From contig JAXDKS010000063.1 in assembly GCA_034666985.1 (NCBI GenBank), positions 105,226 through 169,225 on the forward strand: a stretch of 64,000 nucleotides of DNA, written 5' to 3'. The translations under genes and the position numbers were made by a program. The stretch comes from Acidobacteriota bacterium. Lineage in GTDB: Bacteria > Acidobacteriota > Thermoanaerobaculia > Multivoradales > UBA5704. The notes under the pieces were generated by a model. It did no database searches. It had not been told where the DNA came from and saw only the letters and a program-made list of their open reading frames with translations. Positions 5,711 through 45,296 of this stretch are shown here, in pieces (the stretch's first letter is position 1; each line of letters starts with the position of its first letter).

Positions 5711-6880
5711 ATGCGAGCGAAACGTCTGGCCATCCTCCTCCTGGTCGCCGTCGCCGGCCTGGCGCTGGCCGAGGGGGCGGTGCGGATCTTCTGGCCGCAG
5801 CCGGCCTTCTATGCTTCCCCCGGGCTGTTCGTCGACGACCCCAAGGTCGGGCACCGCATGCGGCCGGGCCTGCGGGGGGAGGTGGGCAACTGGGCCGAGT
5901 TCACGACCCAGGTGCGGATCAACCGGCTCGGGATCCGCGGTCCCGAGATCGGTCCGCGCCGGCCCGGCGTGCGGCGCGTGCTCGTGCTGGGCGACTCCTT
6001 CACCTTCGGTACCGGAGTCGAGGAGGAGGAGGCCTTCCCCGCGCGGCTCGCGGCCGAGCTCACCCGCGCCGGCATCCCCGCCGAAGGGATCAACGCCGGG
6101 ATGGGCGCCTACGGCGTGCCCGACGAGGTGGCCTGGTTCGAAAATTATGGGCGGCAGCTCCACCCCGACCTGATCCTCCTCGGCATCTTCACCGGCAACG
6201 ACCTGCAGGACGCCGCTCCGGACCATCCGCCGATCTACGTGGTCCACGGCGACATCGTGGACGAGGCCGAGCGGCACCGCTCGTCCACCGGCCACTGGCT
6301 CTTCCAGCACTCCCAGCTCTTCGCCCTGCTCAAGTACTCGCTGCCCAACCCGGTGGACCGCGCCCTGCGCCGGGCGCTCCACCTGCCGGAGCCTGGAGCC
6401 ATCCGTTACCTGCGGGAGGAGATGGCCCTCTACGATCCACGGAGCCGGCCGGCGGCGGAGGCGAGCGGAGGCGCCGCTTCGGAGGCGGCGATCCGCCATC
6501 TCCTCGATCTCACCCGCGCCGACCACACCCGCGTCGCCGCCCTGCTCCTCCCCTCCGCTCTCCAGGCGGACGACCGCGTCTGGAATCGCACGCTGCACCA
6601 GCTTCACCTCGCGCCGACGCAGGTCGACCGCATGCTGCCGAACGAGATCTTCTCGGCGGCGCTCGCGCGCTGCGGCGTGCCGGCCCTCGACCTCACTCCG
6701 GACCTCGCGGCGGCGATCCGCCAGGGCGAGGTGGACTTCTTCCCCAAGGACCAGCACTTCACCGCGGCCGGGCACCGCCGCATCGCCAGGGATGCCGCCG
6801 GGTTCCTGCGCGCCCGGGGGCTCCTGGTTGAACCTGCCGCGGCGCCCCGGATACACTCCGCAGCCGCCGGCGCCCTCTGA
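5711..6880 (+). CDS. SGNH/GDSL-family hydrolase (esterase / O-acetyl-modifying enzyme) with N-terminal signal/TM
   Basis: VLVLGDSFTFG serine block with later GxND and DxxH-like motifs, and an N-terminal hydrophobic segment. ATG at 5711. Confidence 0.7.
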   Translation: MRAKRLAILLLVAVAGLALAEGAVRIFWPQPAFYASPGLFVDDPKVGHRMRPGLRGEVGNWAEFTTQVRINRLGIRGPEIGPRRPGVRRVLVLGDSFTFGTGVEEEEAFPARLAAELTRAGIPAEGINAGMGAYGVPDEVAWFENYGRQLHPDLILLGIFTGNDLQDAAPDHPPIYVVHGDIVDEAERHRSSTGHWLFQHSQLFALLKYSLPNPVDRALRRALHLPEPGAIRYLREEMALYDPRSRPAAEASGGAASEAAIRHLLDLTRADHTRVAALLLPSALQADDRVWNRTLHQLHLAPTQVDRMLPNEIFSAALARCGVPALDLTPDLAAAIRQGEVDFFPKDQHFTAAGHRRIARDAAGFLRARGLLVEPAAAPRIHSAAAGAL

Positions 6881-6901
6881 AGAAGGCTCGCGTTTCTCCT
6901 C

Positions 6902-9457
6902 ATGACCTCCGCACCCCCCAGGACCTCGCGCAAAACGTGGCTGGTGCTCGCCGCCATCCTCCTCGGGATCGCGGCCGCCGGGGCTTGGTGGGCCCGCGGG
7001 CACAAGGACACGGTGCGGGCTGCCCTGCGCGCCGTCGATCCCAGCACCGACGCCCGCCCGGCGACGCCCGCGGGGCCGGAGGTCTCCTCCCCCGAGTACG
7101 CCCGCCTGGGCGACGGCTTCCTGGTCTGGGAATCGAACCGCACGGGACCCTGGCGCATCTGGACGCGCCGGCTCGACGGCTCGGGCCTGCGCCAGTTGTC
7201 GCCCGACGAGAGCGGGCACGAGCACTGCTGCGCCCACATCTCCCCCGACGGCCAGCAAGTGGCCTATTTGAGCCTCAGCAACTTCAAGTACGGCGCCGAC
7301 CCTGAGGAGGGGAAGCTCCACCTGATCAAGCCCGACGGCAAGGGGGACCGCGTCGTGGCCGAGCGGGCGCAGACCTACAGCCGCGGCCACCGCGCCGCCA
7401 TCTGGCACGGCGACCAGCTCCTGCAATTCGTGGACGGCGACGGCAACGCCATCCTCCTCGACTTGGCGAAGGGCAAGACGGAGACGCTGGCCGGCCCCAG
7501 CAGCGAGGGCAAGGGCTGGCTGGTGAACCGCACGCGGACCCACGCCACCACGGGGCTGCCGACGTTCTCGCTGTTCGACGCCGCGCGCCACGCCGTCACC
7601 GAGCGCACCCCCTACGGCGGTTGCGAGCCCTACTTCTCCGACGACGGCCGCTGGGGGATCTGGATGGCGGGAGCCGGCGGACCGCTGCGCGCCTTCGACC
7701 TCGCCACGCGCACCACCCGGACGCTGTTCGAGAAGAACGATCCGCGGCTCGGCGAGCAGGCCTACCTCTACTTCCCCATGCTGTCCAACGGCTCGGCCCT
7801 CGTCGCCTTCGGAGCGTCGGCCAACGAGCACGACCACGAGAAGGGGAACTACGACGTGTTCGTGGCCGAGGTCGATCCCAACACCATGGAGGTCCTCGGC
7901 CAGCCCCTGAAGTACACCTCCGCGCCGACCCCGGACCGCTATCCGGACGTGCACGTGGAACCGCTGCCGCTCGGCCGGATGTTCGGCGAGGCCCCGTTCC
8001 ACGTCCGTCTCCAGGATCCGAAGCTCGGCCCCGGCGCCGTCTGGGACTTCGGCGACGGCACCCCGGCCTCGGCGGCCCGCGGGGAGCACACCTACGAGCG
8101 GCCGGGGAGCTTCTCCATCTCGGCGCGCACCGCCGACGGTAGCCCCCTGCGCGGCCGGGTGACCGTGCTCCCCGCCCAGCCGCCCCACGCCCTGCGGGCC
8201 GAGTTGCGCCAGGGACGCGAGATCTTCGTCTCCTTCGACGAGCCGGTCGCCGCCGCCCCGGGCGGGGTGAAGGCCCGTCTGGCCTCGGGGCGGGCGATCG
8301 CCGGAACCGCCATCGGCGCCGACGGCCGCAGCCTGATCGCCTCCCTCGCCGAGGACCTCACGACCGGGGACCACCTGCACCTCGAAGGGATCGCCGACCG
8401 CGCGCAACGGCCGAACGTCCTCGCGCCGGTCGACCTGGAGATCCCGCCTCCCAGTTGGCCGATGGATCGGAGGAGCCTCATCCTGCTCTGGGAGACGGCC
8501 GACCAGCCCAACCTCGTCCCCGATCCGGCGCAGGCCGCGGACCGCACCTACGCCGTGACGCCCCACGGCCGCGCGCGCCTGAACCACGATCACGCCATGC
8601 TGCTGGTGGGCGATGGTGCCTTCCAGGCTGAGGGGGAGGCGGGCAAGAGCCTCGTCGAGCTGGCCGAGAAGAGCAACGAGATCACGCTGGAGCTGACGCT
8701 CACTCCGGCCGAGGCGACGCCCGCGACCTCGGGAGTCCTCCTCTCCTTCGGCCGCTATAAGGGAGGACCTCTCCTCCAGCTCGAGCAGCAGGGGGACGCC
8801 CTGGTCTGGCGCCTGCTGCACAACAAGTCGCTGGACCCGCCGGCCCGTTTCGGCAAGCTCGTGCCGGGTCAACCCGTGCACGTGGTCGCCGGCTACAGCC
8901 CGGGCCGTCAGGTGGTCTACGTGAACGGCGTCAAGGTGCTGGACGGCGACGCCTGGCAGGGGGATTTCTACTTCTGGAAGCCGGGCGCCCTCTCCATCGG
9001 CGCAGGTCACGAAGGCGAGCGCCCCTGGAAGGGCGTGATCGAGGGGCTCGCCCTCTACGATCGTCTCCTCGGCCCGGACGAGGCCGCGGAGAACGCCCGC
9101 CGCTACGCCACGGAGCGGGCTCGCCGGGCGGCCGTGCCCCAGACTCGCGTGCTCGCCACCCTCCAGCGCTGCTCGCGCATCCCCTCGCTCGACGAGATCG
9201 CCCCCTACCGCCAGGCCCTCGCCGTCTGCGAATACCGGGTGGACCGCGTGCTGGCCGGCACCCTCGCAAGCCCGACCGTCCGCGTCGCCCGCTGGGTGAT
9301 CCTCGACGGGGCGACGCTGAATCCTGCCCAGGGCTCCTCGGTGCCGCTGGCCCTCGAGCCGTTCAGCGCCAACGGGCAGCTCGAGAGCATCTACCTCTCG
9401 AACGACCTCCGCGGCAGCTCCACCTCACCGCTCTTCTACGACCCCACGAGCGGGTGA
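6902..9457 (+). CDS. Large membrane-anchored periplasmic protein: TolB-like beta-propeller (PD40 repeats), PKD domain, LamG/ConA-like domain
   Basis: N-terminal TM, then WESNRTGPWRIWTRRLDGSG / ISPDGQQVAYLS PD40-like repeats. PKD-like VWDFGDGTPASAARGEHTYERPGSFSIS. C-terminal LamG-like block (...YVNGVKVLDGDAWQGDFYFWKPGALSIGAG...LALYDRLL). Confidence 0.65.
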   Translation: MTSAPPRTSRKTWLVLAAILLGIAAAGAWWARGHKDTVRAALRAVDPSTDARPATPAGPEVSSPEYARLGDGFLVWESNRTGPWRIWTRRLDGSGLRQLSPDESGHEHCCAHISPDGQQVAYLSLSNFKYGADPEEGKLHLIKPDGKGDRVVAERAQTYSRGHRAAIWHGDQLLQFVDGDGNAILLDLAKGKTETLAGPSSEGKGWLVNRTRTHATTGLPTFSLFDAARHAVTERTPYGGCEPYFSDDGRWGIWMAGAGGPLRAFDLATRTTRTLFEKNDPRLGEQAYLYFPMLSNGSALVAFGASANEHDHEKGNYDVFVAEVDPNTMEVLGQPLKYTSAPTPDRYPDVHVEPLPLGRMFGEAPFHVRLQDPKLGPGAVWDFGDGTPASAARGEHTYERPGSFSISARTADGSPLRGRVTVLPAQPPHALRAELRQGREIFVSFDEPVAAAPGGVKARLASGRAIAGTAIGADGRSLIASLAEDLTTGDHLHLEGIADRAQRPNVLAPVDLEIPPPSWPMDRRSLILLWETADQPNLVPDPAQAADRTYAVTPHGRARLNHDHAMLLVGDGAFQAEGEAGKSLVELAEKSNEITLELTLTPAEATPATSGVLLSFGRYKGGPLLQLEQQGDALVWRLLHNKSLDPPARFGKLVPGQPVHVVAGYSPGRQVVYVNGVKVLDGDAWQGDFYFWKPGALSIGAGHEGERPWKGVIEGLALYDRLLGPDEAAENARRYATERARRAAVPQTRVLATLQRCSRIPSLDEIAPYRQALAVCEYRVDRVLAGTLASPTVRVARWVILDGATLNPAQGSSVPLALEPFSANGQLESIYLSNDLRGSSTSPLFYDPTSG

Positions 9458-38646: not shown

Positions 38647-41291
38647 CGACGCAACATCGCCCGCAGCTCCGGGTCCGTGCCCAGGGGGCCGAAGACGGGG
38701 AGAGTGAACCAGCGCGGCTGGACCCCTTTCTCCAGGGCGAGCCGGGCGTTGACCAGGGCGGAGGCGCGGTCGCCGGCCAGGGCATAGACCAGGGAGGCCT
38801 CATAGAGCGTCTCCGGATCGTCGCCGCTCGCCCGCAGGGTGCCCTGGGTCAGCTCGACCGCCTCCCGCACGCGGCCGAGGTGGACGAGGCACTGCGCGCG
38901 GATCATGCGCTCGGCGGCGGAGAGGCCGCCGGCGCGCTCGGTGGCGGCGAGGCGGTCCAGGGTCTGGGCGTAGTGGCTCCGGGCCTCCTCCCCGCGGCCG
39001 AGGGCCAGCTCGGCGTCCGCCAGGTTGAGGAGCACGGAGACGTGCCCCGGCGCGAGCTCCAGGGCGCGGCGGTACGCCTCAACCGCCGCCTCCGGCCGGC
39101 CGAGCAGCAGGCGGGCGAGCCCGAGATTGGTGTAGTACGAGCGCTGAGGCTGGCGGCGGAGCAGGTCGAGATAGATCCGCTCGGCCCGCGTGGGATCCCC
39201 CTCCAGCAGCTCCAGGTTGCCCAGCTTGTCCAGCCCCCAGATGTTGTCCGGGCCGCGCGCCAGGAGCTCCTCGAGGTGGCGGCGCGCGTCGGCGGTCCGC
39301 CCGGCCTTCATCTCCAGGTCGGCCAGCCGGAAGAGGCTCGACCAATCGGGGGCGTGCTCGACGGCGGTCTTGAGCTCCGCGATCGCCTGCCGGAGGTTTC
39401 CCTGGCTCTCGGCGAGCTTGCCGGCGAGCACGTGGAGCTGGGGATCGCCCGGGGTGGTCGCGGTCAGCGCCGCGAGGGCCCGGCGCGCCTCCTCCGTCCG
39501 GTGCCCCGGCAGGGCGGCGAAGAAGAGGGCCACCAGGGGCCGGGGATCGCCGGGAGCGATCTCACGGGCGGCGCGGGCGGCGGCGAGGGCGCGCTCCAGA
39601 TGGCGGGGATCGTGCGTCGAGGTGAAGAGGCTGGCGGCGACGTGAGAGGTCAGGAGGTGCCCTTCCAGAAAGCGCGGCGAGCTGCGGACGACTTTCTCCA
39701 GCCGGTCGAGCTCGGGCCCCAGGGGGACGCTGCCGCCCTCGAACCGCTCCTTGATCCGCAGGAGCTCGGCGTAGTCGCGGTCGTCCACCTCCAGGGCCGG
39801 CGTGCCGGGGCGGAGGCGCCGCTCGGGCCAGGCGCGCCGGATCTGGACGGCCACCGCGTCGGCCAGCAGCCGGAGGTCCCGGTCCTGCGCGCCGACCGGC
39901 ACGGGGAAGCTGCCCGCCCAGAGCACTCGCCCATCTCGCCCCTGAACGCGCCGTAGCGAGATCTGAGCGCCCCCCGGTCCCCGCGGCTCCATCGTGAGGG
40001 TGAGCACCTCGCCGGCCGCGGCAGTGCGGGCCGCCTCCGCGGGCGAGGTGGCCGGGCCGCTCTGCGCGGGGTCGAGAGGGGAGATGCCGTCGAGCGAGGC
40101 GAGCGCCGAGAGCGCCGCTTCGAGCGCGCCCGCGGACGCCAAGCGGAAATCCTCTCGGGCGCCGGCGGGGACCTTCGGGATCAGGACGGCCACCCGCAGC
40201 GGCGGCGGAGCCTCCTGGCGGACGAGCCGACCGGCGCCGAGGCCGAGGACGATCAGCAGGGCCGCCGCCGCCAGGGCGAGCGCAACCGTACCGGAAAACC
40301 GCCGGAGCTTCGGCGGAGCGTACGACTCACCGGACCCAGCCGGAGGGGGGGCGAACAGGGCGGGGCCGGCCCAGGTGGGCCCCTCGCCGGCCGGCGGTCC
40401 CTCGGGAAGGTCGCTGGGAGAAAGGGCCGCCAGCTCGCGCGCCACCTCGCCGGCGCTCGCCGGCCGTTCCTCGGGCCGCTTGGCCAGCAGCCGGTCCACC
40501 AGGTCTGAGAGCGCCCCAGGGATCTCCGGCCGGCTCTCGCGGACGGGCGGCGGCCGGTGCCCGGCCACGCGCTGCAGGGTCTCCAGGAGATCGCTGCCGC
40601 GGAAGGGGGAGCGGCCGGTCAGCAGCTCATAGAGCAGCACGCCGAGCGAGAAGAGATCGGAGCGGGCGTCGACCTCGCCGCCGCGGGCCTGCTCGGGCGA
40701 CATGGCGTGGAAGGTGCCGAGCACCGCGCCCTCCACGGTGAGCGCCTCCCCCTCTCCCCGGGGAGCGGCGGCCTTGGCAATGCCGAAGTCGAGGATCTTG
40801 GCATGACCGTCCGGGGTGACCATGACGTTCTCGGCCTTGAGATCGCGATGGACGAGCCCGCCGGCGTGGGCCGCCGCGAGCCCCTCGGCGATCTCGCGCC
40901 CCAGCCGCGCGGCGAAGGCGGGCGGGGGGAGCCCCTCCCGCAGCAGCTCGCGCAAGGTGCGCCCCTCGATGTATTCGAAGACGAGGGCATCGCCCGCGGC
41001 GTCCTCCACCAGATCGTAGATCCGCACCACGGCGGGGTGGCTCAACCGCGCCGCCGCTGAGGCCTCGCGGCGGAACCGCTCCCGCTCCTCGGCGGTGGGC
41101 GCCTCGCGCCGGATGCGCTTGAGGGCCACGCGCCGGCCGAGGCGCTCGTCCCAGGCGAGGAACACCTCCCCCATGCCGCCCTGGCCGAGCCGGCGCGCCA
41201 AGCGGTAGGGACCGATGCGGATCGGCTCCGAAGGGGGGTCCGTCGTGGGTCCGGGCTCCGTCATAGGGAGAGATTCCAGGGAGCGGCTCAT
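38643..41291 (-). CDS. Hanks-type Ser/Thr protein kinase with TM and C-terminal TPR-repeat domain
   Basis: YRLARRLGQGGMGEVFLA...VALKRI...LVHRDLKAENVMV...DFGIAK...GTFHAMSPE core. TM TVALALAAAALLIVLGL, then TPR-like repeats. ATG at 41291. Confidence 0.9.
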   Translation of the reverse strand: MSRSLESLPMTEPGPTTDPPSEPIRIGPYRLARRLGQGGMGEVFLAWDERLGRRVALKRIRREAPTAEERERFRREASAAARLSHPAVVRIYDLVEDAAGDALVFEYIEGRTLRELLREGLPPPAFAARLGREIAEGLAAAHAGGLVHRDLKAENVMVTPDGHAKILDFGIAKAAAPRGEGEALTVEGAVLGTFHAMSPEQARGGEVDARSDLFSLGVLLYELLTGRSPFRGSDLLETLQRVAGHRPPPVRESRPEIPGALSDLVDRLLAKRPEERPASAGEVARELAALSPSDLPEGPPAGEGPTWAGPALFAPPPAGSGESYAPPKLRRFSGTVALALAAAALLIVLGLGAGRLVRQEAPPPLRVAVLIPKVPAGAREDFRLASAGALEAALSALASLDGISPLDPAQSGPATSPAEAARTAAAGEVLTLTMEPRGPGGAQISLRRVQGRDGRVLWAGSFPVPVGAQDRDLRLLADAVAVQIRRAWPERRLRPGTPALEVDDRDYAELLRIKERFEGGSVPLGPELDRLEKVVRSSPRFLEGHLLTSHVAASLFTSTHDPRHLERALAAARAAREIAPGDPRPLVALFFAALPGHRTEEARRALAALTATTPGDPQLHVLAGKLAESQGNLRQAIAELKTAVEHAPDWSSLFRLADLEMKAGRTADARRHLEELLARGPDNIWGLDKLGNLELLEGDPTRAERIYLDLLRRQPQRSYYTNLGLARLLLGRPEAAVEAYRRALELAPGHVSVLLNLADAELALGRGEEARSHYAQTLDRLAATERAGGLSAAERMIRAQCLVHLGRVREAVELTQGTLRASGDDPETLYEASLVYALAGDRASALVNARLALEKGVQPRWFTLPVFGPLGTDPELRAMLRR

Positions 41292-41496
41292 TGTAGCTGG
41301 AGAGGAACGCCGTTGATAGGATAGGACGCATTCTCCCCAGCGGAGGGGAGTTCACCGCGGACTTCCCGGCGAGGGTCGAAGCTCCCCAGGTTCACCCACC
41401 AGAACTGGCCGAGCGCCTCCCGCGCCTGCCGCCAAGGAAGCCCTGGCACCTATCCTGGCAGACCACCCATGGTGGATCCTCTGGGGGCCGATGGTA

Positions 41497-41733
41497 TTAC
41501 GGCCAGATTAAGTTTCGGACTGTTACGAGAGCGACGACCAGAGTAAGTGTACCGATCAGAAACATAGTCAATTTCTGAGCAGGAGTTGGATATCTCGTTG
41601 GATAATGGCCCAAGGTCACAACCGCCACTATATATCTACCAATGAAGGAGCCGATGTAGAAAAGTACAAGCCAGAGAAGCTGGAAGATAAACGCGAGAAG
41701 TCCGCCAGGTGCGCTGCCCATAGAGTCCTCCAC
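41497..41733 (-). CDS. Small two-TM membrane protein, hypothetical
   Basis: Two clear hydrophobic helices. Lower-GC island. The start is ambiguous (GTG 41733 or ATG 41721). Confidence 0.35.
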   Translation of the reverse strand: MEDSMGSAPGGLLAFIFQLLWLVLFYIGSFIGRYIVAVVTLGHYPTRYPTPAQKLTMFLIGTLTLVVALVTVRNLIWP

Positions 41734-41854
41734 AGCTTATGGGGAACCATTGTTACCACCCTTGATCCAACATATGGCGGCAAACGCTCAGAAGGTGAGC
41801 GAGCGGGAACCGCGCTTTTTGCGGTTACCGTCCGCTCGACCGTGGAGTTGGGCG

Positions 41855-42469
41855 TCACTGCTTCGACCTCGGGAGGTGAAGCCTCGCCCAGTCTGGCTCA
41901 AATGCCTTGGGCTTCGGTAGAGCATAGACTTCGTCAAGAGAGAGGCCGCGAATGTGTTCCTCGACTAGAGCACGTTGCTGTTCGATAAGAACATCTATTG
42001 CTGCGACGACGGTCCGACAGAGTTCTCTCACTCGCGGCGCGTCCTCGCTTCCGAGGACCATCGAGCGCGCCTGAAGGGTCCCGACGCCCCTGAGCGCTGG
42101 GGCGTCAGGAGGCTCGCGGACGTGAATCGTCACGTGGTTCTCCTCAAGTGCGTTGACCGAATGGGCTACATGCTTATTGCGAACAACGAGAAGGTACGCG
42201 TGCAGTGAACGGAGGTCATCTGAAAGGCCAGCCAAAACTTCATCGCTCAGACGGGCTCGCACACCCGTCGTGAAACAACGAGCGTAGCGGACTGCGATGG
42301 CGGTACTGAGGGCGTCCAACATCACGAGGCTTGTGGGCGATGCAATTTCGACCTCAGCCAGCCGGTCGCAGAAGCCGCTTGCCGCCTCAAGGTCATCCCG
42401 GGCCCCGGTCAGATCGGCGAGCTTTGCCGCTTCATCTGAAGATATGAGTCTGGGTCCCCACGTTGCCAT
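41855..42469 (-). CDS. Hypothetical protein (204 aa), lower-GC island
   Basis: RBS AGGAAA precedes ATG 42469. Protein-like composition, no recognised domain. Confidence 0.5.
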   Translation of the reverse strand: MATWGPRLISSDEAAKLADLTGARDDLEAASGFCDRLAEVEIASPTSLVMLDALSTAIAVRYARCFTTGVRARLSDEVLAGLSDDLRSLHAYLLVVRNKHVAHSVNALEENHVTIHVREPPDAPALRGVGTLQARSMVLGSEDAPRVRELCRTVVAAIDVLIEQQRALVEEHIRGLSLDEVYALPKPKAFEPDWARLHLPRSKQ

Positions 42470-42974
42470 CGTATTTTCCTATTGAGTGACGCCCAACCTA
42501 TGATTCGCCGGCTAAGCATCCAGCCCCTTCGGCTGCCATCTCGTCACTTCCCTTCGTCCAGAAGCGTTGTGTGCCGGCTGTGCTCATCGAGCTAATCTCC
42601 TTGAATTCTTGAGGTTAGACTCAACGTACACCACTTCAGAATGCTCGTCAAGGCAATGCGCTGTGTCGTATAAGCGTCCCAAGAGCCGACTCTTGGTCGG
42701 GTTGCTCAGCCGACAACTTGAGGACTGCCACTCTGAGACGTAAGTGGCGCCAACGATTGGAGATCCTCGGATAACGGCTAGAGCTCTCTTGTCGTATAAG
42801 CGCACCGCAAGAGGGGTGCTGGGGGGCTTAGCCGACAGAGGATCAGTCGCTATGCACTCTCTTCGAGGAAGCCCCTTTAGGCGTAAGGCTCTGAATCCAG
42901 AGAATTTATTCTGAAATCTCAGGTGGCTTATACGACAGCGGCCCTGCCGTATAAGCTCCTCAGAGCGGGCTTTG

Positions 42975-43690
42975 CCGTGAGTCCCGCGACTGCGCCCTGA
43001 GTCATCTGACTTCGGCTTGAGGAAGTTGACGCCGGCCTGAGGAATCTGCCGTCGTCTTGGGGAATCTGCCGTCGCCTTGGAGAAGCCGACATCGGGCTGA
43101 GTCCTCTGCCTTCGTTCTGGGGAATCTGACGCCGGTCTGAGGGATTTGATGCCGGCCTGAGGAAGATGACGCCGCTCTGAGTCCCGAGACTTTGCCGTGA
43201 ATCCCGCGACCACGCCTTGAGTCCTCTGACTTCGCCCTGAGGAAGACGACAACGGTCTGAGGAATCTGCCATCATCTTGGGGGAGTCTGACTTCGTCCTG
43301 AGGAATCCGACAGCCGGCTGAGTCCTTTGACTCCGTTCTGAGGAATCTGACGACGGCCTGAGGAACCTGCCTCCGTCTTGAGGAATCTGACCTCGCCTTG
43401 GGGAAGCCGGCATCGTGCTGAGTCTTCTGCCTTCGTTCTGAGGAATCTGACGCCGCTTTGGAGAAGATGACGGCGCCCTGAGTCCCCCAGACTCTGCCGT
43501 GAGTCCCGCGACTTTGGGCTGAAGAAGATGACGACGGCCTGAGGAAGCCTGCCGCCGTCTGGGGAGTCCGGCCTCGCCCTGGGGAAGCCGGCGCCGTGCT
43601 GAGTCCTTTGACTTCGTGCTGAGGAATCTGACGCCGGTCTGGAGAAGATGACGGCGTCCTGAGTGCCGCGACTTCGGGCTGGGGAAGCTT
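42975..43690. repeat. Tandem array of about 36 degenerate 20-bp direct repeats (consensus approximately CTGAGGAATCTGACGCCGGC) with a 5-unit (100-bp) higher-order periodicity
   Basis: CTGAG/TTGGG recurs at a strict 20-nt phase for more than 30 units. A CTGAGTCC... variant recurs about every fifth unit. All three minus-strand frames are open across it, while the plus strand carries 1-2 TGA per unit. Confidence 0.85.
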
Positions 43691-43734
43691 GCTGCGCGCT
43701 GGATACGACGGATTTGGCGCGGGAGGCCGGGAGC

Positions 43735-43777
43735 CGATATAGAATGAAAAGGGGGAGCGTGCCGCACACGCTCCCCC
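43735..43777 (-). terminator. Rho-independent terminator of the 43788..44171 gene (minus strand)
   Basis: 11-bp perfect stem GGGGGAGCGTG/CACGCTCCCCC, loop UGCGG, followed on the minus strand by TTTTCATTCT. Lies 10 nt after the stop. Confidence 0.75.
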
Positions 43778-43787
43778 GGAAGAGGTA

Positions 43788-44171
43788 CTACGAGTTGGTG
43801 CTGTGAGGAGCCGCCGGCGGGGCCGGCGGCTCCGGCTTCTCCTGCTTCACCTTCTTTCCGCGGAACGGCTGCATACCAAACTCCGCGAGCTTCTCCGAGC
43901 GGAGGCCGTAGTTCTCCGTGAGGAGCCTGCTGATCCCGGTCGCCAACCGCTGACCCTCGTTGACCAGCGTCTTGAGACGCTTCGAGGCGTCCTGCTTGCT
44001 GGCCACGAAGGCCGCCTGCTGTTTGGCGACCTCCTGCGCGTCACCCACCACCTTGTCGAGCCGGAGGCGGGGTCCCTCCAGGTGCGCGAGCTCCGGGGCG
44101 TTCGCGGCCAAGGCCGCCGTGAATCGCGCCAGGCTGCCCAGCTTTCCTGCGTTCATCGTCTCTCTTGCCAT
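43788..44171 (-). CDS. Hypothetical protein (127 aa)
   Basis: Strong RBS AAGGAGA lies 8 nt before the ATG at 44171, and a clean terminator follows. No recognised domain. Confidence 0.6.
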   Translation of the reverse strand: MARETMNAGKLGSLARFTAALAANAPELAHLEGPRLRLDKVVGDAQEVAKQQAAFVASKQDASKRLKTLVNEGQRLATGISRLLTENYGLRSEKLAEFGMQPFRGKKVKQEKPEPPAPPAAPHSTNS

Positions 44172-44456
44172 GGGACTTCTCCTTTCTTGAATGGACCCGC
44201 TCGAACCTGGGCCGCCTGAGCCTCCACGACGACCGCGGAGGTGTCCTTCAGGTACGTTCCCAGTTCAGCGAGACCATGCGCATGATGGACCAACGATTCT
44301 CAATAGTCAACTGTTGGTGGAAATGTTTCTAGCAGATTGCTTCTCCAGAGTCACTGTTGCTATGGTGCTGAGAGACGGCGTCTCTCCTCGACCGCACCCG
44401 AGTTTCGTCACGAGGGATTTTTGCTCCCAGACCGGTGTTCTGCTAGGATCTCTGAC

Positions 44457-45296
44457 ATGGATGACTCCCGTCCCTCCTACGACCTCAAAGCCCCCGGCGC
44501 CTCGGGCCAGTCCCTGCGCTTGCCGGGCCAGCGCTCCTTCCCTCCTCTCGACGAGCACCTGGTCGAGCCCGAGGTGACACGCGACGAGATCATTGGCGGC
44601 CGGCGGGTGGTCGCCATGCCGGCCAAGGAGCCCCATGCCACCCGGCAATTCACGCTCGACTACGTCTTGGCGCCTCATATCGCCCCCGGATACGTCGGGG
44701 CGGCGGACCTGCTGACCCGCGTCGATGTCGATTCGGATTTCGCCAGCGACGCCTGCGTGTACAAGGACGAGGTCGATCCGCAGACCGGCACCCGCTACCT
44801 GGAGGAGATCGTCTTCGAGGTGGTCTCGGAGCAGAACGAGCGGGACGTTACGGAGAAGGCCCTGAGGATGCACCGGCGGGGAGTGCGGCGGATCTTTGCG
44901 ATTTTCGTCAAGGGCGAGCGGCGGGTCTGCGAGTGGTGTGCTGACACTCGGAGCTGGCGTCTCCTGGATCCCTCCTCTTACGTCGAAGACCCCTGCCTCG
45001 AGGTGCCGCTGCGGGTCGCTGCTCTGCTCGACGCGGCGGCGGCGAACCAGGCCGTGGTCGAGGCGCTGGCCGCCCAGGGCGATCCGACGATCCGGAGACG
45101 GGAAGACGCGGCGAGGAGCGAGGGGGAAGCCAGGGGCAGGTCGAAGACCATTCTTCAAGTCCTAGAGGCTCGCGGCATCGCCGTCAGCCCGTCTCAGCGG
45201 GAGGAGATCCTGCGCTGTGACGACCTCGACCGGTTGGACCGCTGGGCGCACCGGGCCGCCCTGGCTCCCTCGGCGGCCGAAGTCCTCACGGAGTAA
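44457..45296 (+). CDS. Uma2/DUF820-like PD-(D/E)xK nuclease-fold protein with a C-terminal DUF4351-like tail
   Basis: The core EPEVTRDEIIGG...EEIVFEVVSEQNERDVTEKALRMHRRGVRRIFAIF resembles the Uma2 family. The C-terminal ...SKTILQVLEARGIAVSPSQREEILRCDDLDRLDRWAHRAALAPSAAEVL matches the DUF4351 tail seen on Rpn/YhgA- and Uma2-type proteins. Confidence 0.65.
   Translation: MDDSRPSYDLKAPGASGQSLRLPGQRSFPPLDEHLVEPEVTRDEIIGGRRVVAMPAKEPHATRQFTLDYVLAPHIAPGYVGAADLLTRVDVDSDFASDACVYKDEVDPQTGTRYLEEIVFEVVSEQNERDVTEKALRMHRRGVRRIFAIFVKGERRVCEWCADTRSWRLLDPSSYVEDPCLEVPLRVAALLDAAAANQAVVEALAAQGDPTIRRREDAARSEGEARGRSKTILQVLEARGIAVSPSQREEILRCDDLDRLDRWAHRAALAPSAAEVLTE

Follow-up and report, generated by a model that had tools for sequence, protein, structure and literature searches.

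Among the systems that pair a protein with a repeat array, the closest relatives in design of the locus described here are the plasmid centromeres sopC of F (12 copies of 43 bp downstream of sopB) and parC of R1 (10 copies of 11 bp bound by ParR), and the plasmid iterons, Rep-binding direct repeats of 17–22 bp that stand in 3–9 copies in an origin together with DnaA boxes, an AT-rich unwinding element and a rep gene. We analyzed a stretch of 64,000 nucleotides from an Acidobacteriota bacterium (contig JAXDKS010000063.1 of assembly GCA_034666985.1; hereafter the window), in which a tandem array of 20-nt units (42978..43699, no strand assigned) lies past the end of a minus-strand gene for a 127-amino-acid (aa) protein (43788..44171). 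Acidobacteriota are an abundant, mostly uncultured soil phylum, and to our knowledge the organization of their nucleoid is essentially undescribed. We find that the 127-aa gene, its terminator and the 20-bp array form a conserved module in an Acidobacteriota lineage, the named relatives being Thermoanaerobaculia; this module is the new and solid finding of the analysis.

By analogy, the array would in function most resemble centromere- or iteron-like phased arrays beside the gene for their binding protein, although it falls outside each of the families with which it was compared. It shares with sopC and parC a phased, tandem, non-coding arrangement beside a small gene, whose product is here a proposed coat only; like theirs, the array is probably untranscribed, and between lineages its architecture persists although the sequence co-diverges. 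It differs from them in that no gene for a ParA-, ParM- or TubZ-type NTPase was called next to the module in nine loci, that the 127-aa protein lacks a ribbon-helix-helix, helix-turn-helix or ParB signature, and that the module is chromosomal (on contigs of 395 kb to 5.9 Mb with housekeeping genes), with 20–36 copies of a 20-bp unit. With iterons it has in common the unit length, the direct tandem order and a spacing of two helical turns, but the DnaA boxes, unwinding element and rep gene are absent here: flanking proteins gave no match to Rep or another family, and no Rep was seen in the nine related loci. An earlier note on this DNA, made from the sequence alone, had suggested a protein-binding array of iteron or parS type; protein binding is the best surviving reading, whereas both specific labels fail for want of a Rep, for want of a ParA/ParM-type NTPase and because of the chromosomal setting. 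Comparison by eye with ARG-box, DnaA-box, parS, NBS and matS sites gave no convincing match. Repetitive extragenic palindromes and the bacterial interspersed mosaic elements (BIMEs) built from them are likewise intergenic, past the 3′ end of a gene, and palindromic units in alternating orientation occur in some lineages of our array; BIMEs, however, are scattered over a genome at hundreds of loci, whereas the unit studied here is confined to the array within the 64 kb and is tied to one gene family.

By a segmentation anchored on the recurring TGRR, the 722 bp of the array divide into 36 units, of which two measure 21 nt and the others 20 nt. Autocorrelation over 42975–43690 revealed self-identities of 0.576, 0.54 and 0.50 at lags 20, 40 and 60 as compared to about 0.23–0.27 at off-period lags, bearing out the 20-nt period and the roughly 36 copies reported in the earlier note. 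The periodicity that it called strict is interrupted by three 1-nt phase shifts (near 43283, 43488 and 43548, one of them inside unit 29), and these slips explain long-range autocorrelation peaks at 281/301. Tandem Repeats Finder, recommended there for fixing the unit boundaries, returned fragments only, because the copies are just ~60–65% alike; the anchored segmentation set the boundaries instead. Units abut head to tail with no spacers, so the array is not CRISPR-like, as had been stated.

The plus-strand unit consensus is TGAGGAATCTGACGCCGGCC. Columns 1–2 are TG in all 36 units, column 11 is G in 34, column 13 is C in 35 and columns 16–17 are CG in 33; columns 8, 9, 14, 15, 18 and 19 are near random. 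Two unit types can be told apart, a TGRGGAA type (24 units) and a TGAGTCC type (12 units, at positions 1, 2, 7, 11, 12, 13, 18, 23, 26, 27, 32 and 35). Two types had indeed been noted before, but the claim that the second recurs every fifth unit holds only at some intervals, and the 100-bp higher-order structure drawn from it is weak: mean unit identity is 0.615 at a lag of five units as compared to 0.65–0.675 at lags of 14–16 units, where the strongest long-range likeness lies (e.g., units 4–8 against units 20–24), and the higher-order repeats of related arrays measure 80–81 bp. Segmental duplications are present inside the window array. A pattern of the conserved columns over three units found seven matches in the array and none in 100 shuffles of the window; the single-unit pattern, at up to two mismatches, occurred within the 64 kb in the array only, plus one chance match. 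Every unit has one AT-richer and one GC-rich half (the genomes concerned have 57–70% GC), and the array sits, as observed earlier, in a low-GC island (about 41200–44600; GC 0.54–0.64 as compared to 0.72–0.78 outside).

To place the array in an evolutionary context, we examined nine independent loci encoding homologs of the 127-aa protein, which are 61–84% identical to the window protein and 55–85% identical to one another, the close pair L185/L187 excepted. Eight of the nine loci have, past the gene, first the hairpin and next a periodic array of 380–720 bp; the period is 20 bp at seven of them (best lag 20 in each) and 39–40 bp at one (L197), and every array holds at least about 20 units. The distance from stop codon to array is 88–240 nt, except that in L197 some 400 nt of additional sequence intervene and the array begins at 476 nt. 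By identity of the encoded protein to that of the window, the loci are L187 (84%; array cut by the contig end), L185 (82%; about 660 bp, with an 80-nt higher-order repeat in 4.1 copies), L188 (77%; 716 bp, 81 nt in 8.8 copies), L189 (70%; about 400 bp), L190/L191 (67%; about 380 bp), L193/L194 (66%; about 480 bp, weakly periodic), L196 (64%; about 500 bp, 25 near-identical units of TGGGACGTCGTAAAGTTTGG), L197 (62%; displaced, 39–40-nt period) and L195 (61%; no array). Flanking genes are unlike at every locus (Uma2, glycosyltransferases with IS21, PGM with a TPR protein, an FHA-GAF cyclase, ArgR and others), which indicates that the conserved unit is the gene plus the array. The presence of orthologous arrays in independent assemblies also argues against an assembly artifact, which the earlier note had named as a case that would overturn its observation. 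The 127-aa gene is the sole gene that travels with the array. Two neighboring gene products had been proposed as partners for a pull-down with the array as bait: that of 43788..44171 is evolutionarily linked to it, whereas the 204-aa product of 41855..42469 is unlinked, and was rejected as partner because a 91%-identical homolog lies with no array nearby and a different gene follows the L185 array.

Homologous arrays came to light only via the neighboring 127-aa protein. In 185,579 genomes, a DNA-pattern scan for TGRGGAA at 20-nt spacing hit over 118 tandem repeats of 10/20 bp, spread over all phyla and unrelated to the array; not one of them fits the conserved-column pattern or carries the 127-aa gene. 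Searched with the conserved-column pattern, metagenomes gave 62 20-bp repeats, near-perfect and likewise unrelated. As an observation in its own right, other Acidobacteriota metagenome-assembled genomes (L061, L034, L069) carry near-perfect 20-bp GAGGAATCGGAACTGACGM arrays right past gene ends; in L061 one such array (about 6980–7420, reverse strand) is followed by a second one of CCGATTGATCCGAGTTCA-type units (7430–7700). These resemble the window unit at GAGGAATC and TGACG; the GAGGAATCGGAACTGACGM arrays do not fit the conserved columns and have no adjacent 127-aa gene.

The arrays of the eight loci share ancestry while their units have turned over. The window array is orthologous to that of L185, with collinearity at both ends, and the gains and losses between them are mostly of whole units (20 or 39–40 nt). 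Counting 8-mers shared in the same orientation to the gene, we found 26 between window and L189 as compared to 7.2 in controls, 18 as compared to 6.4 between window and L197, and 23 as compared to 5.2 between L188 and L190; for none of the three pairs did any of 300 same-locus controls reach the observed value. This excess argues that the arrays derive from one ancestor. The unit consensus itself differs by lineage (AGGAAtcTGAC in the window, GGGAAcgTtACC in L188, GgTAAgaTTA in L190, GGGaattTTgCGACG in L189 and CGTAAAGTTTGG in L196). Kept across the arrays are the 20-bp period, a minimum of about 20 units, the position past the hairpin and the alternation of AT-richer and GC-rich half-units; the distal flank of the array is not conserved.

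Between gene and array lie two further conserved elements. The terminator mentioned in the earlier note is confirmed at 43751..43777 on the minus strand, where it ends the 127-aa gene (GGGGGAGCGTG-TGCGG-CACGCTCCCCC, then TTTTCATTCT), with a hairpin of 12 pairs, nine of them G-C, and a T-run. The hairpin sequence is the same in L185, L187 and L190, and in L189 it is the same with one extra flanking pair; L188 shows one loop change, and L193, L196 and L197 share a compensatory stem change from GCGTG/CACGC to GCGCGCC/GGCGCGC. Hairpins identical down to the loop are thus found among lineages whose proteins are just 67–70% identical, a degree of conservation that seems to go beyond what termination alone would need. 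The spacer between terminator and array (43700..43750, no strand assigned) is G-rich on the plus strand and C-rich and G-poor on the gene strand, a composition kept past the terminator in at least five lineages (GC skew +0.43 in the window and +0.46 to +0.52 in L185, L188, L189 and L190); a block CATCCAGCGC..AGCAAGCTTCCCCAGC is kept in closer relatives. Two identities come into question for the spacer, a C-rich rut-like tract (gene strand) or a tract prone to form G-quadruplexes (opposite strand). Runs of 3–8 G occur in the spacers of L188, L189 and L190.

The 127-aa protein belongs to an uncharacterized family of small proteins with no domain annotation. A word-indexed search returned 425 homologs and an exhaustive search about 986 clusters at 50% identity, with lengths of about 90–200 aa, mostly 120–140 aa; we found no domain fusions in this wider family, no Pfam, NCBIfam, PADLOC or PHROG family for the protein, and no homolog in 72,556 plasmids or in the viral contigs searched. 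Its C-terminal part carries an invariant motif, YGxRSEKLAEFGxQPFRG(K/R), which relaxes to QPFR(G/S)R in distant members and is followed by a basic, proline-rich disordered tail. The AlphaFold2 model (mean pLDDT 79) has helices at residues 2–23 and 29–88 and a disordered tail at 106–127, and sequence matches in the PDB are to coiled coils only. Transcription of the gene would start from a sigma-70-like promoter, TTGACT-17-CATCAT (44310..44282, minus strand); promoter and 5′ untranslated region (44172..44310, minus strand) include a strong Shine-Dalgarno sequence, and the promoter position implies an untranslated leader of roughly 110 nt. The promoter (TTGACw-17-cATnaT), the leader and AAAGGAGAAG at the leader's end are kept across the homolog loci (61–84% protein identity). 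An alignment fold of the leader gives just one 5-bp stem with some compensatory changes, and a regulatory leader is possible.

We tentatively favor, as the first choice among readings none of which we hold firmly, the view that the array is a phased platform for binding at the level of DNA, its partner probably being the adjacent coiled-coil protein with its basic tail. Speaking for this reading are the linkage of gene and array at eight of nine loci, the descent of the arrays from one ancestor despite turnover of their units, the constancy of period and size, the column-specific conservation, core motifs that occur as palindromes or in either orientation, the lack of a conserved RNA fold, a position between a terminator and the next promoter with an unconserved distal flank, and the AT/GC alternation of the units. 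The module would then consist of a small coiled-coil protein gene, a strong terminator, a C-rich spacer and 20 to 36 putative binding sites phased every 20 bp, or about two turns of the DNA helix, and the array would act as double-stranded DNA. An oligomerizing protein could load cooperatively on the phased sites and build an extended nucleoprotein structure, which might serve as a nucleation, titration or anchoring locus; entry of RNA polymerase into the array would be barred by terminator and spacer. From linkage alone, we infer that the most economical candidate for the binder is the 127-aa protein, with a long helical hairpin suited to self-association and a conserved basic QPFRGR(K/R) arm. 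A more specific version, which we consider possible though on balance unlikely, is an undescribed chromosomal protein-site system of Acidobacteriota, in which a coiled-coil protein with a basic C-terminal arm polymerizes on its own cis array into a dedicated nucleoprotein body (centromere-, anchor- or reservoir-like), with no partition NTPase, and reads the phasing and composition of the DNA rather than a fixed sequence; such a mode of reading would explain why the motif of the protein stays constant despite unit turnover.

Two readings place the array's function in its transcript or its translation product. The three overlapping minus-strand open reading frames (ORFs) listed in the earlier note exist (165–279 aa, namely 279, 222 and 165 aa, with 42928..43767 among them), and an ORF of 278 aa was called over the L188 array, both of which could speak for a real or degenerate minus-strand repeat-protein gene. 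We find such a gene scarcely credible, and the array is non-coding: a period of 20 nt, being no multiple of 3, cannot keep a reading frame; self-identity at lag 60 is weaker than at lags 20 and 40; and the ORFs are open merely because the unit is nearly free of stop triplets on the minus strand (two in the array as compared to 42 on the plus strand), whereas the L188, L190 and L197 arrays have abundant stops on both strands. None of the three ORFs matched Pfam, the 279-aa ORF matched no NCBIfam model and had no homolog among 5.8 billion proteins, and neither IMG annotation (JGI metagenome contig Ga0467065_0000021, 395,714 bp, of a genome labelled Acidobacteriota) nor NCBI annotation calls a gene in the 1.3-kb gap that holds the array, the NCBI locus tags on either side being consecutive (QOF89_5462, QOF89_5463). 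The repeat-protein gene, one of the candidates of the earlier note, was rejected on its period and on the lack of homologs, family match and gene call; the judgment in the same note that the repeat is primarily DNA-level stands. The domain-less 278-aa protein that a gene caller placed across the L188 array (6333–7169, minus strand) is very likely a spurious, repeat-made ORF. An array acting as RNA, either as a repeat-rich non-coding RNA or as a long 3′ untranslated region reached by terminator read-through or from an unrecognized promoter, is in our judgment improbable. Such an RNA might, as a multivalent scaffold or decoy, engage a factor that binds RNA, whether the adjacent protein by its basic RGR-type tail or CsrA by GGA. 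Ro/Y-RNA and OLE RNA, whose RNA genes adjoin the genes of their protein partners, are precedents; GGA occurs on the plus strand in 24 of the 36 window units; a GAGUC-N4-GACUY hairpin is possible in 9 of the 12 GTCC units, where G-U wobbles arise on the plus strand alone; and the terminator hairpin is kept far more strictly than termination alone would require. By contrast, Rfam gave no match in the window at the gathering threshold, nothing relevant at E ≤ 10 over 42400–43900, and no match for the arrays of related loci; we found no promoter-like site facing into the array, and on the gene strand a polymerase would meet a strong terminator and a C-rich, rut-like spacer before reaching it; and GGA is lost in L190 and L196. 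An RNA fold is not conserved: folding z-scores against dinucleotide shuffles (two strands) are +1.0/+0.6 in the window, +1.1/+0.4 in L185 and −0.9/+0.9 in L196, so that an excess is absent in three lineages, and in the other four (L188, L189, L190, L197; z −4 to −8) the two strands show it alike, the outcome expected of inverted repeats in DNA. The core motifs, moreover, are palindromic or present in both orientations (GGTAACGTTACC in L188, TAAGATTA/TAATCTTA in L190, GGAAAACTCC/GGAGTTTTCC in L189), with copies direct in L196 and inverted or alternating in L197; such flips alter an RNA sequence and are tolerable for a duplex site, and they favor double-stranded DNA. The idea of a CsrA sponge was dropped on the grounds that GGA is not kept in orthologous arrays and that promoter, Rfam match and folding excess are lacking; the likeness to CsrB/RsmZ, many GGA repeats in one non-coding locus, is confined to the window array and comes with no conserved stem-loop presentation. 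Type III toxin-antitoxin loci (ToxI) also have tandem non-coding repeats and a terminator between repeats and a small gene, but here the order is reversed (gene, terminator, repeats), the ToxI units of 34–45 nt in 2–6 copies contrast with 20 nt in 20–36 copies, and the 127-aa protein matches no ToxN/AbiQ or other defense model (PADLOC, Pfam).

A more serious rival to the binding platform, though again unlikely in our estimate, is a neutral, self-perpetuating minisatellite that hitch-hikes with the gene and has no function: a 20-bp repeat would have arisen once downstream of the gene, slippage and unequal recombination would copy whole units and so keep the period, and the stable hairpin and G-run spacer may promote repeats by stalling replication. 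Several observations fit this account and at the same time weigh against the platform. Orthologous parts of the window and L185 arrays are 83–87% identical, as compared to 83.6% at the 4-fold degenerate sites of the gene, and their substitutions are not depleted in conserved columns (15% vs 19%, p = 0.38); at this short distance purifying selection on the array is not detectable. Signs of amplification abound (81 nt × 8.8 in L188, 80 nt × 4.1 in L185, the 25 near-identical units of L196, the window's segmental duplications), indels are of whole units, and inserts beside or inside the region are tolerated (a MITE-like element in the window, IS21 in L188, the ~400 nt extra in L197). Tandem repeats of 20 bp are common in GC-rich genomes generally, and L195 carries the 127-aa gene with no array. 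Further points count against the platform: the linkage sample is nine lineages only, the AT patches of the window units are short (AAT/AAG), and the protein is without a recognizable DNA-binding fold. A PDB fold search with its AlphaFold2 model gave no match; the RGR of its motif varies in distant members (RSR or RRR); sub-threshold Pfam Histone_HNS_N matches in 15 of 49 members appear beside other coiled-coil families and look like generic coiled-coil noise; and hhalign gave the family a probability of 0.1% against Escherichia coli H-NS and 0.2% against Mycobacterium tuberculosis Lsr2, both comparison sequences having been entered by hand. Homology to H-NS/Lsr2 was rejected on these values (below 1%), and as judged from the model the resemblance is architectural only: H-NS, Lsr2 and MvaT are proteins of about 110–140 aa with an N-terminal oligomerizing coiled coil and a short basic R-G-R-type motif for the DNA groove, and they target AT-richer patches in a GC-rich genome, features whose putative counterparts here are the predicted coiled coil, the QPFRG(K/R) motif and the AT/GC alternation of the units, but they show no detectable homology and have no dedicated cis-linked repeat array, and the motif here is C-terminal and outside any folded domain. 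Several points speak against neutrality. Arrays of at least 380 bp are kept in eight of nine lineages at 55–85% protein identity despite relocations, whereas neutral arrays should often shrink to nothing, an absorbing state; the module relocates whole, whereas an array without function should tend to drop out in such moves; and within-array variation is strongly column-specific (in L196, 44 of 52 deviations fall within 7 of 20 columns; chi-square p = 6e-12, although unit variants spread by duplication and these column statistics are not independent events, a further reservation about the platform). A phase-variable minisatellite, also raised in the earlier note, would have no target, since the array is placed between a terminator and the next promoter; the observation made in that note is confirmed, and its interpretation is partly supported. 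Readings other than the DNA platform, the neutral minisatellite and the RNA have, we think, little chance of being right. If the pairing of gene and array in a binding platform is true, it would offer a testable function for an uncharacterized small-protein family (about 1000 clusters with no domain annotation) and a chromosomal, NTPase-free addition to sopC, parC, iterons and other protein-plus-repeat-array systems. Even if neutral, the array would be a rare documented case of a bacterial minisatellite held at one locus across deep divergence, useful for studies of concerted evolution and, by the spurious 278-aa ORF, a caution for gene callers.

The array and its surroundings yielded several further observations. 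GANTC, a common methyltransferase target, occurs 24 times in the window array (as GAATC, GAGTC or GACTC, in 22 of the 36 units), at a density of 33 per kb as compared to 2.1 per kb in the whole window, with 2.5 sites expected in the array from shuffles; the enrichment is not common to the L190 or L196 arrays. Beside the array lies a 274-bp element resembling a miniature inverted-repeat transposable element (MITE; 42664–42937), with 21-nt inverted repeats TGTCGTATAAGCGTCCCAAGA / TCTCAGGTGGCTTATACGACA and a partial copy at 42945–42957. The motif GTCGTATAAGC occurs four times at this element, where 0.12 occurrences would be expected in the window. L185 lacks the element at the orthologous position, which marks it as an insert in the stretch from the array to the next promoter, and the GTCGTATAAGC inverted repeats were rejected as an operator or promoter of the array because they are the ends of this insert.

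Farther on, an unannotated 29-aa ORF, MSTAGTQRFWTKGSDEMAAEGAGCLAGES (42498..42587, minus strand), has a Shine-Dalgarno sequence AAGGAG and a sigma-70-like promoter, TTGACG-17-TACGTT (about 42622–42650, minus strand). It is kept in L185 (MRTAGSRRFWTKGSDDMAAGEAGCLAGES) with synonymous changes, and the genes past it are unrelated (204 aa in the window, 98 aa in L185). Divergently upstream of the 127-aa gene, inside the low-GC island, a gene for a Uma2-family putative restriction endonuclease (44337–45296, plus strand; PF05685, E = 2e-7) is not conserved at the other loci. In L188, an IS21-family element is inserted at the distal end of the array, and an Acido-Lenti-1 RNA motif (RF01687; 7332–7377, minus strand; 47 bits as compared to a gathering score of 37) adjoins it; repeated GCTGTCG..hairpin motifs by this IS21 element resemble the end repeats of insertion sequences.

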